DNA of 64,000 nucleotides from Promethearchaeota archaeon (GTDB taxonomy: Archaea > Asgardarchaeota > Lokiarchaeia > Sigyniarchaeales > SOKP01): positions 73,166 through 137,165 of the forward strand of contig JAHPZJ010000013.1 of the NCBI GenBank assembly GCA_019058245.1, read 5' to 3'. Below the pieces are notes generated by a model. The model was not told where the DNA came from and ran no database searches. It saw only the letters and a program-made list of their open reading frames with translations. Numbering within the stretch: position 1 is the stretch's first letter; each line of letters begins with the position of its first letter. Shown here in pieces: positions 6,321 to 29,557 of this stretch. The position numbers were made by a program, and so were the translations under genes.

Positions 6321-7370
6321 TTGGTTGCTGTGTCTGATATTTTTGATAAAACAGTCAAAAAAAAACCCAAGGAAGATTTATGTGTTGTATATGTCATGTT
6401 TTTCGATGAAAAGCGTGGTCAGGTACCATTATTAATGTATCCCGATGATCGACTTAGAAGTGATAAAAGATATATGCGTCCAATAAATTTTCATCCAGTT
6501 TGGTTTTTAGAAACTGAAGATCTTGACCATATTGATTTAGAATATAAAGGATATACATTTTTTGGTAAAAAATTTCTGGCAAAATCAAAAAGGCAAAAAA
6601 GGAGAGCAGGATTAGAGGAAGAAACTCCAGAAACGATAGTAATAATAGTCTCAATTCCAGTTGAAATTGATATTTTTGGAGATGAATTAATAAAAAGATT
6701 AACAGAAGAACTGCGAGAAAATTTCGATGATCAATTATCTGAGGTTATAGAAAGTGAAATTGCATCTGAAGCTGTAATAAAAACACCAAAGATTCATGAA
6801 TGTATTTCCAAAGGAACAAAAATTAAGGTTTTTATGAGGGAACTAATTGATAAAACCATTAAAGATTACTTTTCAAAAGCTATTGAAAATAGAGCAGAAT
6901 CTACCTCTCTCAAGACACAAAAAGCAATAGCGTATTTTTCTCTTAAAGGTTTTGAGTTTTCTCCTCTTAGTAGTTTAAAAGGAGATGGTAGTTTTGCAAA
7001 TTTAGAACTCTTTGAAACATCGAAAAAACCAATAGAACTTATTGGACCAAAATCTATTCTATCAATTACACACCTTAATTTTATTGAAAACAGCCAAGAG
7101 CTTGAGATTACTATCCAAAACAATACAGATAAGGATCTAACAAATATGTCTGTTACAATTACTCATGTTAAAGAATTTTTTGAAAAGGTCATAATGACTC
7201 AAAAAGTTGAATTTTGGTTTTCTCTAGAAGAACTCTTATTTGTTTCTCCAATTGTTCCTCATATTAATGAATATTTAGTTTCTATTAAACAAGAAGATGA
7301 TCATGGTAATAGTAATAAAATTCTCACTCATAAAATTGATTTAAAATTAATAAATAAAATATCTAGTTAA
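6321..7370 (+). CDS. hypothetical protein, possible N-terminal longin/uDENN-like domain
   Basis: 349-aa ORF with TTG start; VVYVMFFDEKRGQVPLLMYP resembles the uDENN/longin beta1-beta2 pattern. Confidence 0.5.
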   Translation: MVAVSDIFDKTVKKKPKEDLCVVYVMFFDEKRGQVPLLMYPDDRLRSDKRYMRPINFHPVWFLETEDLDHIDLEYKGYTFFGKKFLAKSKRQKRRAGLEEETPETIVIIVSIPVEIDIFGDELIKRLTEELRENFDDQLSEVIESEIASEAVIKTPKIHECISKGTKIKVFMRELIDKTIKDYFSKAIENRAESTSLKTQKAIAYFSLKGFEFSPLSSLKGDGSFANLELFETSKKPIELIGPKSILSITHLNFIENSQELEITIQNNTDKDLTNMSVTITHVKEFFEKVIMTQKVEFWFSLEELLFVSPIVPHINEYLVSIKQEDDHGNSNKILTHKIDLKLINKISS

Positions 7371-15216: not shown

Positions 15217-16092
15217 ATAGCAGAAAAAAAGATAGATATCCTCTTAATTGAAGATAATAAAGCTGATGTACGTCTTATTGAAGAATTTTTGAAAAAATCT
15301 GAAGAATTCAAATTTAATTTAGAATCAAAACCTAGACTTTATGAAGGTATGAATTATCTTAAGTCTAGAGACTTTGATATTATTTTATTAGATTTAACCT
15401 TACCGGATAGTGATAAAGAGAATACTCTAGAAATTGTTTTAAACAATACTACCTCTATTCCTATAATTATTTTAACTGGATTAGATGATAAGGATATAGC
15501 ATTAAAATCTCTTCAAAAAGGTGCTCAAGACTATATACTAAAGGATGAATTAAATCAAGGAAATTTAACAAGAGCTATAATATATGCTATTGAAAGACAT
15601 AAAAGTAAAACTGAAAAGATAATAGAGAGAGCTTTAAAAACGCAATTTGATGAAAAAGATAAAGAAATTCTTAATTATCTACAAGACAATTATAAAATCT
15701 CATATAAAGATTTAAGTAAAAAAGTGAATTTAGCTGCCAGCACTATTCATAATCGAGTACAAAATATGATAAAAGAGGGAATAATAAAGAAATTTGATAC
15801 GTTTGTAGATCCTTTTAAAGTTGGATATACATCTATAGCCATTCTTGGTCTTTCTGTAGATCCGTTGAAATCTGAGAATATTGCTAGAAAACTCTCAAAA
15901 TATGATGAAATACAATTAGTTGCCTCCTCTACGGGAGATCATAATTTATTATTGAAAATTATTGCGAAAAACGAAAAATATCTTTGGAGATTTATAAATG
16001 AAGAAATTAAAACTCTAGATGGTATCCAATCACCAATACATGTTTCAAGCTTTTTAGATATCTTTAAAATGTCTCATAAAATTACCTTTTAA
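15217..16092 (+). CDS. response regulator: REC domain fused to an Lrp/AsnC HTH regulator; probable ATA start
   Basis: IDILLIEDN (upstream of the track start), LLDLTLPD, IILTG, GAQDYILK; then FDEKDKEILNYLQ..STIHNRV..GII and an AsnC C-domain. GGTGA+6 nt precedes ATA. Confidence 0.88.
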   Translation: MAEKKIDILLIEDNKADVRLIEEFLKKSEEFKFNLESKPRLYEGMNYLKSRDFDIILLDLTLPDSDKENTLEIVLNNTTSIPIIILTGLDDKDIALKSLQKGAQDYILKDELNQGNLTRAIIYAIERHKSKTEKIIERALKTQFDEKDKEILNYLQDNYKISYKDLSKKVNLAASTIHNRVQNMIKEGIIKKFDTFVDPFKVGYTSIAILGLSVDPLKSENIARKLSKYDEIQLVASSTGDHNLLLKIIAKNEKYLWRFINEEIKTLDGIQSPIHVSSFLDIFKMSHKITF

Positions 16093-16207: not shown

Positions 16208-17263
16208 TTATTCAAAAGCTTGAGGAATTAACATAATGAAATTACTTCCTTTTGAATAATCTCCAGCTACTTTATCCTCAACCCAAATTTTCCCGCTATA
16301 TTTTTTAAGTATTCTTTTAACGATTGATAATCCAATTCCCATACCTTTAGAATACTTATCTTTATGATTTCTTCTCTTAAAAATAATTTCTTTACGTTCA
16401 TCGGGAATTCCAATTCCGTTATCTTTAATTTCGATTTTTAAATAATTTATATCATTTATTTTTTCATTTGAGAGATTTATTTTAATTTCTACTAAAGAGC
16501 TATCATTATATTTCACAGCATTAATAAATAAATTAAAAAATACTTCATATAATAATTCATTTGCATTAATCCAAATGGTTTTATTTGGGATCTCTATATT
16601 GAAAGTTATTTCTTTATTCTGGTAATAATTTTTAATGTTTACAATTGACTCCTCAAGTATTTCTTTTATACTAATTTTTTTTAAATAAAATTGAGAATCT
16701 TCTAGTTTTGTTAGATTTTGTACATTTAAAGTTAATCTTACACCCCTAAGACATTGATCTCTTATTATTTCAATTAATTCATCTTGTTTATAGACCTTAT
16801 TGCCATTTTTTCTTAAAATTGTATAGAGTTCTGTAGAAGATAAAATATTTTGAAAGATATTATTCATATCATGGCTAATTAAATCTCTATAAAAAAGAAT
16901 GTTACGATATGCTTTAGTTAGTTCTTTAGTTTTTGAAATATTTTCACTTAAAGCAGTAACAATAATACCAACAATTATAATCATTATAGCCCTAAGAATT
17001 TGTTCTAAGTTCTGTAAATAATCAATAATTATACCAAAAAAGAAAGGAAATAAAATTAGTGAGAGTGCCAAATATATAGGGATAAATAAACCATACTTTT
17101 TCCACCAAAAACAAGCTAAAATTGTTGGAATATAGAAGAGATGTGAAAAAAAGATGTTAATTTTTAAAATTATTTGAAATAAATAATTCAAAACGGATGA
17201 AATAATTAAAAGTATGATTATAATGGCATACTTTATTTTTTTAGTGTAATTTTTAATCTTCAT
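16208..17263 (-). CDS. membrane-bound sensor histidine kinase
   Basis: N-terminal TM helices; H-box SHDMNN, N-box NAVKY, G1 DNGIGI, G2 GMGIGL. Confidence 0.92.
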   Translation of the reverse strand: MKIKNYTKKIKYAIIIILLIISSVLNYLFQIILKINIFFSHLFYIPTILACFWWKKYGLFIPIYLALSLILFPFFFGIIIDYLQNLEQILRAIMIIIVGIIVTALSENISKTKELTKAYRNILFYRDLISHDMNNIFQNILSSTELYTILRKNGNKVYKQDELIEIIRDQCLRGVRLTLNVQNLTKLEDSQFYLKKISIKEILEESIVNIKNYYQNKEITFNIEIPNKTIWINANELLYEVFFNLFINAVKYNDSSLVEIKINLSNEKINDINYLKIEIKDNGIGIPDERKEIIFKRRNHKDKYSKGMGIGLSIVKRILKKYSGKIWVEDKVAGDYSKGSNFIMLIPQAFE

Positions 17264-17342: not shown

Positions 17343-18644
17343 TTAATGCGTGGCACATGAAATACAAGGATCAAATGCTCTAATTATCATCTGTACTTCT
17401 TTTTCTACTAATTTAATATCACCAGTTTTATCAAATAGTTCTTGAGCATATTTAGTTATCATTTGATTAAGAAGTGGAATATTAAACTCCGTAGCAATGA
17501 ATAGTTTTATTTCATCAATAATGTTGTTTTTATTTATGTGATAATTATGTATTAAAGTTCCTCTTGGTGCTTCAATAACACCAATACCCTCATTCTTTTT
17601 AATAGATTTAAAAGAAGGAAGATACTTTCTAACATTTAATGAAGGTTCTCCCAATATCTGTATACATTTATATGATTCAATATATATTTCCAGTAATCGT
17701 AAAAAATTAATGAATAGTAAATTATTTGTCCATGATTTATTAAAATATTCAAGATATGTATTAATTTTATCAAAATCATACTTTTCAATAATTTTATAAC
17801 GTGAAAAAGGTCCAACTATTACATTTTTTTTATTTTCAAAAAAGAAATCAATACCTCTTAAATTTATCTCTTTATTAAAATATCTTGTATAGTTTTGAGC
17901 TTCAAATTCTATTAGATTTTTGTCTTCTTTAAGGCTTAAAGAACCAGAATATCGATCATAAATACCATGATTATTTTTCGCTAAACAAATAGTATTTGGT
18001 AAATTAAAATCTTCTGGAGGGATTTGATTACCAAATAATTTAATGAAATCTTCTATAATCCATTCTACAATCGTTAAGGCTTTTTGAAGATATTTTTGAG
18101 ATAATAAAATTAATTTTCCAGAAGGAGAATAAATAACACCTCCGGGAACAATTGAAATCAAGTGAACAGACCTACCACCAAAAATCTCATTGATTTCATT
18201 TCCAAATTTAATTAGATCGTATAAATTTGATGTTAATTGAGGATTAAATTTGATTAATTCATAGGGAGATAAAGTATTTTTACTAATATTAAAAATTTTT
18301 AAAAGATCTGGCAAAGTTTGAAAGAAAAAGTTCATTGAATGGGATTTTATTAATTCTGCTGTCATTAATAGGCGTCTTAAATAAATACTTTGTTCTGAAA
18401 TTTCTATATTGTAAATATCTTCTAAAGTTTTACAACTTGCAATTGCTTGAGAAGCATAACATAAACCACATATTCGAGATACAAATTTAGGAATATCAAG
18501 TAGCCTTTTACCTATTAGGAATTTTTCAAATCCCCTATATACGTTAAATTCAAAATTTGCTAATGAAACTTCATCATTTTGAAGCATAATTTTAACTTCT
18601 CCATGTCCTTCAACACGTGTACATACATTAACAATTTTTTGCAA
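17343..18644 (-). CDS. mvhA: [NiFe]-hydrogenase large subunit, group 3 (MvhA-like), atypical
   Basis: TRVEGHG, RGFE, RICGLC (L1), APRG, RAFDPCISCATH-stop (L2). Confidence 0.88.
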   Translation of the reverse strand: MQKIVNVCTRVEGHGEVKIMLQNDEVSLANFEFNVYRGFEKFLIGKRLLDIPKFVSRICGLCYASQAIASCKTLEDIYNIEISEQSIYLRRLLMTAELIKSHSMNFFFQTLPDLLKIFNISKNTLSPYELIKFNPQLTSNLYDLIKFGNEINEIFGGRSVHLISIVPGGVIYSPSGKLILLSQKYLQKALTIVEWIIEDFIKLFGNQIPPEDFNLPNTICLAKNNHGIYDRYSGSLSLKEDKNLIEFEAQNYTRYFNKEINLRGIDFFFENKKNVIVGPFSRYKIIEKYDFDKINTYLEYFNKSWTNNLLFINFLRLLEIYIESYKCIQILGEPSLNVRKYLPSFKSIKKNEGIGVIEAPRGTLIHNYHINKNNIIDEIKLFIATEFNIPLLNQMITKYAQELFDKTGDIKLVEKEVQMIIRAFDPCISCATH

Positions 18645-18649
18645 TAATA

Positions 18650-19408
18650 TTACCTATTAATCTTTGGTTTTGAAAATCGATTATAAATTCCAGTATATTT
18701 TTGCAATTCTTGAGAAAGTTCTATTAAACTCAAAAAATTTACAACATTAGATGTAAAATCTTTTGATACAGGCCCCATGCATCCTTCGCATGGAAGTCCC
18801 ATTTTTATACATTTATGCTCACAACCATCACGAGTTATTGGTCCCAAACATAAAATACCATTATTTAAAAAACATTCAGAGTTTTCTTCACCTAATCTAA
18901 TTTCTTCGGGATTAGGATTAATTTTAGTTATTTTTATATGGGAATTAATTTCTATACTTCCTCTTAATGGACAATTTGCACACATATTTTTTTCGGATAA
19001 AATTATATCTTTATTTCCAACCAAATTGATTAAACAATTTCCAAAAAATTTAGATGGAGGAGGACAACCAGGAATCATACCATCAATTTCAATATGATTA
19101 GATAAAGGCTCTGCTTTCTTTGAATTAGAAAGGCTTAAAATTCCACCAAAGCAAGCACATGTTCCTAATGCAAAAACTCTTTTAGCACGTTTTCTTATTT
19201 TTCTAATAAGATTTATTTGTGTTTCTTCAGAAATACATCCTTCTACTAATGCAATTTCGCATTCTTCTATATCATCTGAATCTAAAATAAATAGAAAATA
19301 GTTTATTTTTATTCTTTCAAGAAATTGGGGGAAAATATCTAAAGATATAAGAGTCGATATACATCCAGTACATGATGTAAGAGAAATTATATTGAATCTA
19401 GGCTTCAT
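18650..19408 (-). CDS. mvhG: [NiFe]-hydrogenase small subunit (MvhG-like)
   Basis: SCTGC, VEG, GTCACFGG, PGCPP, C..C, CFL..G.LCLGP.T..GC...C....PC.GC.GP. ATG at 19408 follows a GGAGGAG SD. Confidence 0.88.
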   Translation of the reverse strand: MKPRFNIISLTSCTGCISTLISLDIFPQFLERIKINYFLFILDSDDIEECEIALVEGCISEETQINLIRKIRKRAKRVFALGTCACFGGILSLSNSKKAEPLSNHIEIDGMIPGCPPPSKFFGNCLINLVGNKDIILSEKNMCANCPLRGSIEINSHIKITKINPNPEEIRLGEENSECFLNNGILCLGPITRDGCEHKCIKMGLPCEGCMGPVSKDFTSNVVNFLSLIELSQELQKYTGIYNRFSKPKINR

Positions 19409-21947
19409 ACTTAATCTCCTCCAATAGGTTATTATACAATTTATTAGCAGTATCAGCAAATTTATTTCCTTCAACAGCATTCAAATGTTTAAGGATTATT
19501 CGATCTTTATATTTTGGATCTATTACATTTTTTAATAGTCTGATTTTGTTTTCTATCTTTTTTACTCCATCTATATATCGACAAGCATCTTGTCTACATC
19601 CAACTATCATAACTCCATCGAAACCAAGTTCAAATGATTTAATAATAAAGTTTGTATCAATACGTCCTGTACAAGGAACTCTTACAATGAAAACATTAGG
19701 AGTATATGAAATCTTTTTTAGTCCAGCATTATCAGCTGCAGCATATCCACATGATGCACAACAGAAGGCAATGATTTTTGGATTTGATCTGAATTTTGAG
19801 AAAATCTTAATTGTCCTTAAAATTTTCTTAGAAGTATCTATATTTAGGTCTATAGCATTAGTAGGACAAATACTAGCACAAGTGCCACCCCCTTTACATT
19901 TGAATTTATCTATACTAATTTTATCCCTCTCTATTGTAATTGCATTATATGGACAAATTTTTAAACATAAACCACATAAACCACATTTATTTTCATCTAT
20001 TTCAATTCCAGTAAATTCTGCTATTAAATAATCCTTAGAAAGTAATGAAATGACTTTTAAAGCAACATTATTAGCTGTTGAAATAGTAGAATTATAATTT
20101 AAAGGACCGAAAATAGTTCCAACACCATAAATTCCGGATGCTAATGTGTCTACACTCATAAATCCGTTATTATCTAATGTAAAATCCATATATTGTCTAA
20201 GATTTTTTAAATCCTCATTTGGGATATATTTTATATTTAATACTATCAAATCGCTTTGAAATTCTATATTATCCGCAATAACATAATTTATATCTTTAGA
20301 AGATTTAATGCTAATTTTATTTGCATAAATAAATTTAGGGTTTGTAGATCTTAACAAAATCTCATCCTTATCCTTTAACCTACTTAAATCATAAAAAACA
20401 TTTACTTCACAATGAGGATTTCTTATTTTAACATCCTCAATATATTTTTCTGCTAAAATTTCAGAAAAATCTGATAGATATTTTGAAGGACCAACTTCTT
20501 GAATTATTGAAATGGAAATTATGGGCTTTTTATCTGATATCTTTACAAGTTTCCCATCAGTTAGGCCATCAGACGATAAAAGACGCTCAAATTCAGGTGA
20601 TGTTATTATATTTTTTTTTGGATTATAATTATATTCTTCTAAATCTTTATAAAAATCAGATCCAATAGCAATAACTTTAGTACCAACTTTTATTTCAATT
20701 CTTTCTTCTTTTTGATCCAAATCTATTGCTTTATTTATGCAAGCACGTTCACAAATCCTACAATTAAGACAATTCTTTAAATCTTCCTCATCTATCAAAG
20801 GAGCATAAGGATAAGAATGTATGAATGGAATATAAATTAATTTTCGATTACTTAAACCAAATTCATATTGATTTGGTTTTTCTATACTACAAACAGAAAT
20901 ACATTGTTTACATCCTGTACATTTTTTTACATCAACATATCTAGGTTTTTTAATCATATTAATTGTGAAATTTCCAACTTCTCCTGTTACGTTTTCGATT
21001 TCTGTATTTGTGAATATTTTTATATTTTTTTCATTAACTAACTCTGCTATTAATTCAGAAATAAAACATATTGAACAATCACCCATATTATGAATTCTGT
21101 GCCATCTAGCTACCTTACCTCCTAAGGTTGGTGATTTTTCAATAAGATATACTTTTATTCCTGCTCGTGCTAAATTTAAAGATAAAGTTATACCAGCAAT
21201 TCCTCCACCTAAAACAGCACAACTTTTCTCAATTTCAACTCTCTTTACTTTTATTTTTTTTTGAAAACTTACACGTTCAACAGCTGCCTCAATTAATAAC
21301 TTCCCTTTTTCTAGAGGAAGTGATAGATTGTTTTGTTCATCATTTGGTTGATGTACCCAACAACATTGTTCTCTAATATTAGCAATTTCAATATTAGTAT
21401 GATCAATAATATCTTCAAAAATTCTTTCAAAAAGATTTTGGTGAGTTTTAGGAGAACAAGCAGCTATAACTATTTTATTTATAAAATTATCTTTTACCCA
21501 ATTACGAATTTTCTCAAAGTTTTTTTGCTGACAAAGGTTTTCAAATACTTTTACCGAAACTACTTTTTTTAATTTATTTACGTAATTTTCAAGTGCTTTT
21601 ATATTAATTACATTTGAAATTTCTGTATTACAATTACAAATAATTACTCCAACACGACTTATTTCGCTTCTCTTTGAATCAAAATACTCGTCAATAAATT
21701 CTCCTGCTAAAATTCTCTTATTAAGATTAATAATTTTTAAAACACGTTTACCATCTTCTGTGAGAAAATATGCTTTATTGTCCTTACCTATTAATGAACC
21801 AATCTTTTTAAGGTGAAAATTTAATTGTCCAGTCGTATCTAAATTGAGTTTTTCCATTAATTCGGTATATGGAATATATCCTTCTTTTTCTAAAAGAAAT
21901 AAAATCTTTCGTCTAAACGGATGAGATAATATTGAATATATATCCAT
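19398..21947 (-). CDS. winged-HTH / degenerate HdrA / MvhD triple fusion protein
   Basis: N-terminal ArsR-like wHTH (SHPFRRKILFLL..LNFHLKKI..YFLTEDG); HdrA motifs (ICNC, ACSP, NIREQCCWVH, GGGIAG, ferredoxin repeats, EFERL); C-terminal MvhD (FCC..C, RVPCTGRID, GC...CRY). Confidence 0.88.
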   Translation of the reverse strand: MDIYSILSHPFRRKILFLLEKEGYIPYTELMEKLNLDTTGQLNFHLKKIGSLIGKDNKAYFLTEDGKRVLKIINLNKRILAGEFIDEYFDSKRSEISRVGVIICNCNTEISNVINIKALENYVNKLKKVVSVKVFENLCQQKNFEKIRNWVKDNFINKIVIAACSPKTHQNLFERIFEDIIDHTNIEIANIREQCCWVHQPNDEQNNLSLPLEKGKLLIEAAVERVSFQKKIKVKRVEIEKSCAVLGGGIAGITLSLNLARAGIKVYLIEKSPTLGGKVARWHRIHNMGDCSICFISELIAELVNEKNIKIFTNTEIENVTGEVGNFTINMIKKPRYVDVKKCTGCKQCISVCSIEKPNQYEFGLSNRKLIYIPFIHSYPYAPLIDEEDLKNCLNCRICERACINKAIDLDQKEERIEIKVGTKVIAIGSDFYKDLEEYNYNPKKNIITSPEFERLLSSDGLTDGKLVKISDKKPIISISIIQEVGPSKYLSDFSEILAEKYIEDVKIRNPHCEVNVFYDLSRLKDKDEILLRSTNPKFIYANKISIKSSKDINYVIADNIEFQSDLIVLNIKYIPNEDLKNLRQYMDFTLDNNGFMSVDTLASGIYGVGTIFGPLNYNSTISTANNVALKVISLLSKDYLIAEFTGIEIDENKCGLCGLCLKICPYNAITIERDKISIDKFKCKGGGTCASICPTNAIDLNIDTSKKILRTIKIFSKFRSNPKIIAFCCASCGYAAADNAGLKKISYTPNVFIVRVPCTGRIDTNFIIKSFELGFDGVMIVGCRQDACRYIDGVKKIENKIRLLKNVIDPKYKDRIILKHLNAVEGNKFADTANKLYNNLLEEIKYEA

Positions 21948-22033: not shown

Positions 22034-22064
22034 TGATTAATATTATTGTCAGATTATTTAAATA
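22034..22064. promoter_or_regulatory. TATA-like TATTTAAATA next to a TGA(T/C)(T/A)A-N6-TTGTCA site, upstream of the HTH-hdrA operon
   Basis: The 16-mer TATTATTGTCAGATTA is identical at 22041-22056 and 29542-29557. Confidence 0.5.
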
Positions 22065-29534: not shown

Positions 29535-29557
29535 TGACAACTATTATTGTCAGATTA
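29535..29557. promoter_or_regulatory. inverted repeat TGACAA-N6-TTGTCA, putative operator
   Basis: Perfect arms at 29535-29552 in the 1-kb divergent intergenic region; shares a 16-mer with 22041-22056. Confidence 0.5.

Follow-up and report, generated by a model that had tools for sequence, protein, structure and literature searches.

A glutamine-type, tail-less [NiFe] hydrogenase large subunit beside a DNA-binding HdrA–MvhD fusion in Asgard archaea: a candidate H2-reporting module

The 64,000-nucleotide stretch of contig JAHPZJ010000013.1 analysed here (the window), from an assembly of a Promethearchaeota archaeon (GCA_019058245.1), encodes on its minus strand, at positions 17343–18644, a protein that sequence and predicted fold assign as the catalytic subunit of an offshoot of the MvhA-type (group 3) [NiFe] hydrogenases that is specific to Asgard archaea. 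Three of its features, the glutamines Gln66 and Gln418 and a C-terminus that ends without extension, match those of the proteobacterial H2 sensors and, on the alignments and trees described below, were gained independently of them. The large subunit is accompanied by a small subunit and a flavoprotein fusion with a winged helix, and we give even chances to the proposal that the complex acts as a low-turnover H2-reporting module for this DNA-binding partner, in effect a redox-controlled transcription factor. A fuller claim, that this would be the first archaeal H2 sensor, a group-3 convergence on the proteobacterial sensor solution that signals by reducing a DNA-binding HdrA–MvhD flavoprotein and uses no kinase, we put somewhat short of even. 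H2 partial pressure decides the feasibility of the syntrophic fermentations proposed for Asgard archaea, and is central to hydrogen-based hypotheses of eukaryote origin; to our knowledge, no archaeal H2 sensor has been described.

The large-subunit gene is a single open reading frame (ORF) with a TTG start, encoding 433 residues that match PF00374 with an E-value of 8.9e-27 and include both the N-terminal RxCGxC and the C-terminal DPCxxCxxH motifs. Full-length HMMER alignments were obtained to 7t2r_D (E-value 5.6e-53), MvhA 5odc_F (1.4e-48) and 9sw2_F (2.4e-44), and the AlphaFold model (predicted local distance difference test score 87.7; predicted template modelling score 0.90) has MvhA 5odc_F as its top fold match, with a template modelling (TM) score of 0.89; by these measures the gene is a complete [NiFe] large subunit with a group-3, MvhA-like fold. 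Its L1 motif, RICGLCYASQ (residues 57–66; 18447–18476), provides the nickel ligands Cys59 and Cys62 and the gate residue Leu61, and closes with Gln66, which aligns with the His of RICGICxxxH in all three solved structures. Gln109, within the sequence NFFFQ (18318–18332), falls on the second gas-channel gate position, as placed by the clade contrast and group 2b alignments described below and by PMC11023054. The C-terminus (QMIIRAFDPCISCATH and a stop codon; 17343–17393) carries Gln418 seven residues before DPC, the L2 ligands Cys427 and Cys430, and the terminal His433; TAA directly follows DPCISCATH (residues 425–433), and MvhA and 7t2r_D extend about 25 residues beyond the equivalent His. The four Ni–Fe cysteines, the proton-transfer residue Glu12, the catalytic Arg361 of the PRG motif and the terminal His are all retained, and the L0 motif reads RVEGH.

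A first-pass annotation of this DNA had drawn attention to the Gln in place of the L1 His, to the missing C-terminal extension and to the lack of a maturation protease gene in the window, and all three observations stand: no PF01750 match is present in the window, the sole match in the genome being a HycI-type protease on another contig (C20). Its description of the Gln and the tail-less end as hallmarks of the group 2b H2 sensors is likewise borne out, both by the literature, where Gln-for-His is given as characteristic of regulatory hydrogenases (PMC5665086) and groups 2b, 2d, 4c, 4e and 4g are listed as tail-less (PMC7294309), and by a comparison set composed of HoxC from megaplasmid pHG1 and six further sequences from a plasmid collection (50–70% identical to HoxC). 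All seven carry Gln where the window protein has Gln66 and Gln418, Ile and Phe at positions 61 and 109, and no tail; the resemblance extends to the segment before DPC, which aligns as VQHIVRSFDPC in the window protein and VQMIIRAFDPC in group 2b. Both gate positions are non-standard in the two systems, with different residues, Leu and Gln in the Asgard clade and Ile and Phe in the sensors (Ile62 and Phe110, against Val74 and Leu122 in the Desulfovibrio enzyme); sensors typically have the bulkier gate residues, and when the channel is obstructed, H2 evolution is slowed to a greater extent than H2 oxidation (PMC11023054). Further parallels with HoxBC/HupUV of Cupriavidus necator and Rhodobacter capsulatus are coexistence with energy-converting hydrogenases and a link to a transcription factor (PMC5665086, PMC7294309, PMC11023054). 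The two are not related by common descent, however, as the window protein belongs to group 3 and is 20% identical to HoxC, and the bacterial sensors signal through a PAS histidine kinase and a sigma-54 activator (HoxJ–HoxA), whereas a directly wired DNA-binding flavoprotein is proposed here. Lys258 was considered as an additional shared sensor trait and set aside, the column being variable in group 2b.

Neither the Gln nor the tail-less end is attributable to chance or error, since both are common to the 120 best database homologues (54–100% identity): 119 of them carry the Gln, the other being a pattern mismatch, all 120 end at L2, and those that are named are all labelled as Asgard metagenome-assembled genomes (MAGs). 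A joint alignment of 121 clade members with 124 other group-3 relatives sets the clade apart at five positions, which are occupied by Gln at 66 (121/121, against His in 119 and Tyr in five of the 124 relatives), Leu at 61 (120/121, against Ile or Val in 105/124), Gln at 109 (114/121, against Leu in 96/124), Lys at 258 (115/121, against Glu in 111/124) and Gln at 418 (121/121, against Glu in 96/124). Glu12, Cys59, Cys62, Arg361, Asp425, Cys427 and Cys430 are invariant across the clade, and His433 is found in 120 of the 121 members. Non-clade sequences among the 150 best representatives of a 50%-identity library nearly always have His, with tails of 0–34 residues, and MvhA-like relatives carry 20–34 residues after the L2 His. 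Short tails are kept by some Gln lineages, with 11 residues in L052/P0124, seven in P0128 and five in P0133 and P0135.

Two side observations concern these same positions. A separate group-3 lineage (P0176, P0179, P0224 and P0264) has Tyr at the place of the L1 His, in RICGICPVAYQ, and Gln is thus not the sole natural substitute for this residue. Gate position 109 and position 418, seven residues before DPC, covary across group 3 as Leu–Glu, Met/Phe–Lys and Gln–Gln, a hint that the two residues are perhaps spatial neighbours.

Two phylogenies, from FastTree (123 sequences) and from IQ-TREE under LG+G4 (46 sequences; the root set by HoxC and HoxG of Cupriavidus necator), both place the large subunits linked to the helix-turn-helix (HTH) fusion as one clade inside group 3 (99% support), separated from HoxC and HoxG by a branch with 100% support; support is weak for its deep branching with respect to the MvhA-like and other subgroups. 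Within this clade, the sequences with Gln group together (100% in the Shimodaira–Hasegawa-like approximate likelihood ratio test), with a single His exception, P0123. The basal HTH-linked members, seven loci from two other GTDB families, have His: large subunits of family f21 read RICGLCSSAH, with tails of 7–8 residues, and those of family f18 read KICGFCSAAH, both behind the same winged-helix (wHTH) fusion, and the gate residues of these basal relatives are Leu/Phe or Phe/Met. Since the His-bearing members are basal, the Gln was gained inside group 3, and the topology places the DNA-binding fusion before the Gln in this lineage and supports a single origin of the Gln among HTH-linked proteins, independent of the bacterial sensors. 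As judged from these sequences, full loss of the tail is confined to the crown group and is not strictly coupled to the Gln, the P0128 lineage with its Gln and seven-residue tail also lying behind a wHTH fusion. In family f18 (L057–L060), the L2 motif was observed to lack its terminal His (DPCISCSSV...) and to run on for 8–10 further residues, so that the usual endopeptidase cleavage site is absent.

The convergence of sensor features on a group 3 scaffold suggested by the first-pass annotation is therefore upheld by the trees as far as convergence goes; sensor function itself is a different matter, the catalytic residues all being kept. Its expectation that the Gln and the tail-less end would accompany the HTH–HdrA fusion holds in one direction, in that Gln implies HTH (30 loci), and fails in the other, with seven HTH-linked loci having His and four Gln lineages having tails. 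The opposite pattern, of Gln-type, tail-less proteins among ordinary Asgard MvhA without the HTH, was not encountered in the three comparators: VhuA of the window genome has His, its 21-residue tail being carried by the split-off VhuU, and His and a tail are likewise present in the large subunits of L061, an Asgard locus with an HdrA–MvhD fusion that lacks the winged helix (24-residue tail), and of L062, which has a separate MvhD nearby (25-residue tail).

Sampling of the phylum recovered the lineage in 61 of 300 genomes, including 51 of 68 in family f1 and none of seven in its sister family f2. Identities between the window genome and families f3, f18 and f21 are 33–43% for the HTH-linked large subunit, 44–54% for the small subunit and 51–63% for the fusion, against 55–56% for VhuA; the large subunit is therefore the fastest-evolving part of the unit, its identity being the lowest and below that of VhuA of the same genomes.

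On the minus strand of the window, the genes stand in the order wHTH–HdrA–MvhD fusion, MvhG-like small subunit, large subunit and membrane histidine kinase, of which only the fusion and the small subunit are conserved partners of the large subunit. The fusion (19398–21947, minus strand; 849 residues) has DUF7347/HTH_24, FAD/NAD, Fer4 and FlpD domains; residues 94–712 align to HdrA 8rvu_a (E-value 9.8e-109) and residues 722–841 to MvhD 5odc_D (4e-24). Its HdrA part keeps the N-terminal and ferredoxin-like Cys motifs and the GGGIAG motif for flavin adenine dinucleotide (FAD), and is without the Cys-rich segment (the CSxxCC region) of solved HdrA, around residues 480–500. The small subunit (18650–19408, minus strand; PF01058; alignment to MvhG 5odc_E with an E-value of 1.8e-30) preserves every Cys ligand of the three [4Fe-4S] clusters of MvhG; its longest ORF reaches 19480, overlapping the end of the fusion gene by 83 nucleotides (19398–19480), and the likely start is the ATG at 19408, because homology to MvhG begins near it. 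Loci were drawn from species-representative genomes (17), from genomes of the phylum (24) and from a metagenome scan (three usable). At all 30 loci where a Gln-type large subunit has sufficient DNA upstream, the small subunit and the wHTH–HdrA–MvhD gene precede it, and the three genes occur together at these 30 and at the seven His-type loci, spanning at least five GTDB families and one metagenome lineage; no HdrB, HdrC or other acceptor subunit is conserved beside them at the loci examined.

The closest known counterpart is the group 3c [NiFe] hydrogenase–heterodisulfide reductase of methanogens, MvhAGD–HdrABC or VhuAGDU–HdrABC (PDB 5ODC, 9SW2, 8RVU). MvhA, MvhG, HdrA and MvhD are the best sequence and fold matches for all three proteins, and the small subunit with three [4Fe-4S] clusters and MvhD as adaptor to HdrA are shared. 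The Asgard clade departs from this system in its L1 Gln for His, in the absence of the 25-residue extension, in gate residues Leu/Gln for Ile or Val and Leu, and in two Glu replacements, Lys258 and Gln418; its HdrA and MvhD are fused, with an N-terminal winged helix and the Cys-rich segment of HdrA missing, no HdrBC is conserved near the unit, and it forms a separate clade in the trees. Published work has handled Asgard group 3c enzymes as bifurcating MvhADG–HdrABC, and searches of a literature library found no paper in which an Asgard [NiFe] hydrogenase is noted as Gln-type or sensory.

The window genome (3.09 Mb assembly, 76% complete) also encodes, on the same contig as the window but outside it (G000:C13:322000-327000), a second large subunit, a VhuA of 435 residues with RICGICPIPH that ends before L2. 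Next in order are a VhuU-like ORF, in which an in-frame TGA takes the place of the L2 cysteine (D-C-U-L-S-C-A-A-H) and which closes with a tail of 21 residues, and the genes for HdrC and HdrB. This gene content identifies the second cluster as a canonical selenocysteine Vhu–Hdr enzyme of group 3c. It adjoins HypC, with hypEDF at a distance of only about 25 kb; tblastn recovered HypA, B, C, D, E and F from this genome. About 53 of the 61 sampled genomes carrying the lineage have a second large-subunit match.

If the complex is an H2-reporting module, it would bind and split H2 slowly, under restricted gas access and an altered second-sphere chemistry, and its large subunit would mature without need of an endopeptidase. 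Electrons would pass along the three [4Fe-4S] clusters to the [2Fe-2S] cluster of MvhD and into the flavin/Fe–S body of the fusion protein, whose redox state would set DNA binding by the winged helix. The complex would thus report H2 or redox status to transcription and not carry bulk H2 flux, which would be left to the separate selenocysteine Vhu–Hdr enzyme. A likeness in concept is found in the HydS-type group C [FeFe] hydrogenases, putative sensors fused to PAS domains, which also combine an altered second sphere with a signalling domain (PMC11216029); they differ in having an unrelated metal centre and fold, and in carrying the signalling domain on the catalytic subunit and not on an electron-transfer partner.

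A range of observations weighs against such a reporting role. The catalytic residues, the full Fe–S relay and the FAD site in the HdrA part are all retained, as would be expected just as well of a working enzyme, and a regulatory role, if any, does not need the Gln, because the basal HTH-linked members have His. The corresponding Gln of the bacterial sensor is reported to have no apparent part in sensing (PMC5665086), the metabolic groups 4c and 4e include tail-less large subunits (PMC7294309), and several His-type group-3 lineages among the 150 best library representatives are tail-less. The L0 motif is RVEGD in all seven group 2b sensors, in contrast to RVEGH in the window protein. At the output side, L005 and L006, the two nearest relatives, are the only other loci to have an ortholog of the histidine kinase after the large subunit. 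The palindrome TGACAA-N6-TTGTCA was rejected as an operator, its count in the window being at chance level (six found against 5.0 expected); copies include a perfect site at 29535–29552 and a site with two mismatches at 22034–22051, upstream of the fusion gene.

The strongest competing explanation, a serious one to which we nevertheless assign a probability well under even, is a working metabolic hydrogenase that passes electrons through the HdrA–MvhD flavoprotein for H2 uptake or evolution, with a winged helix that is only autoregulatory or structural, and with the Gln, gate and tail changes tuning catalytic bias, potential or maturation. Conservation of the catalytic residues and of the three [4Fe-4S] sites is as expected of such an enzyme, as are the MvhA fold (TM score 0.89) and an HdrA part that aligns over its full length with its GGGIAG motif; the lineage is widespread and old, and HypA and HypB are kept in genomes where no other hydrogenase was detected. 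Less easily accommodated are the lack of a conserved HdrB, HdrC or other acceptor subunit beside the three genes, the missing CSxxCC segment of HdrA, the replacement of two Glu conserved in group 3 (Lys258 and Gln418) together with the changed gas gate, the higher evolutionary rate of the large subunit compared with canonical VhuA from the same genomes, and the coexistence of a canonical Vhu–Hdr enzyme in most genomes.

An adaptation of a catalytic enzyme to oxygen, in which a narrowed or polar gate and a changed second sphere protect the active site without any signalling, is unlikely. Bulky gate residues add to O2 insensitivity in the bacterial sensors and reactivation is faster with hydrophilic residues at the site of Val74 (PMC11023054), and the clade has Leu61 and Gln109 at its gate; this explanation, however, leaves the strict link to a DNA-binding partner unexplained, and the same genomes keep a selenocysteine Vhu enzyme of the O2-sensitive type.

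A cofactor-less scaffold, with the complex sensing redox only through its Fe–S clusters and flavin, is very improbable: it draws on four genomes (G049, G077, G234 and G249) that keep the three genes and in which HypD, HypE and HypF were not detected, but each of the four has an intact HypA and two intact copies of HypB, the gap in G049 is an assembly break, and the four metal-binding cysteines, Glu12 and Arg361 are invariant across the clade. The break is located in contig C48 of G049 (a 99%-complete MAG), which ends inside hypF (L077) and is collinear with G000:C13:353814-360173 of the window genome; real loss was accordingly rejected, and the HypD/E/F absences are best explained as assembly gaps. 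No other PF00374, PF02906 or PF00346 match was found in G049, G077, G234 and G297, an apparent sole-hydrogenase status that carries little weight, as vhu lies about 25 kb from hypEDF in the window genome and could be hidden by the same gap. These apparent absences lend no support either to a cofactor-less protein or to a metabolic hydrogenase that stands alone in its genome. The joint absence of hypCDEF and vhu from several otherwise good MAGs of the family is an observation in its own right, and could mislead presence/absence surveys.

Should the H2-reporting module be confirmed as a sensor, syntrophic Asgard archaea could set gene expression by ambient H2, through signalling of a new kind in which a hydrogenase acts on DNA by way of a flavoprotein, and the group-3 convergence would show which residues count when a catalyst becomes a sensor, or a slow enzyme with a gas gate. 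Should it prove a working enzyme instead, the supposedly invariant L1 His and the C-terminal extension would be dispensable in a large natural clade, and the Asgard 'MvhADG' annotation would still merge two functionally different hydrogenases.

Membership of the neighbouring regulatory genes in the system is uncertain. A membrane histidine kinase with a HATPase_c domain (16208–17263, minus strand) begins 79 nucleotides downstream of the large subunit, and a convergent REC-Lrp/AsnC response regulator (15289–16092, plus strand; Response_reg, HTH_24 and AsnC_trans_reg) lies beyond it. The pair was considered as sensor output and rejected, since only the window, L005 and L006 have the kinase behind the large subunit; its N-terminal membrane part is seen in L063, and the regulator also occurs near L005, L009, L010 and L014. 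HoxJ/HupT of the group 2b systems is a soluble PAS kinase, in contrast to this membrane-bound and non-conserved protein. The REC domain matches its Pfam profile only from position 24, and the annotated TTG start probably truncates the N-terminus of the regulator. In six family-f1 loci (L064–L071), the large subunit is followed by a conserved ORF of about 340 residues that has no Pfam match and is unrelated to the kinase; its homologue in the window (6336–7352, plus strand; 39–42% identity) is 10 kb away on the opposite strand, and a fragment of the same ORF is found after the kinase in L005.

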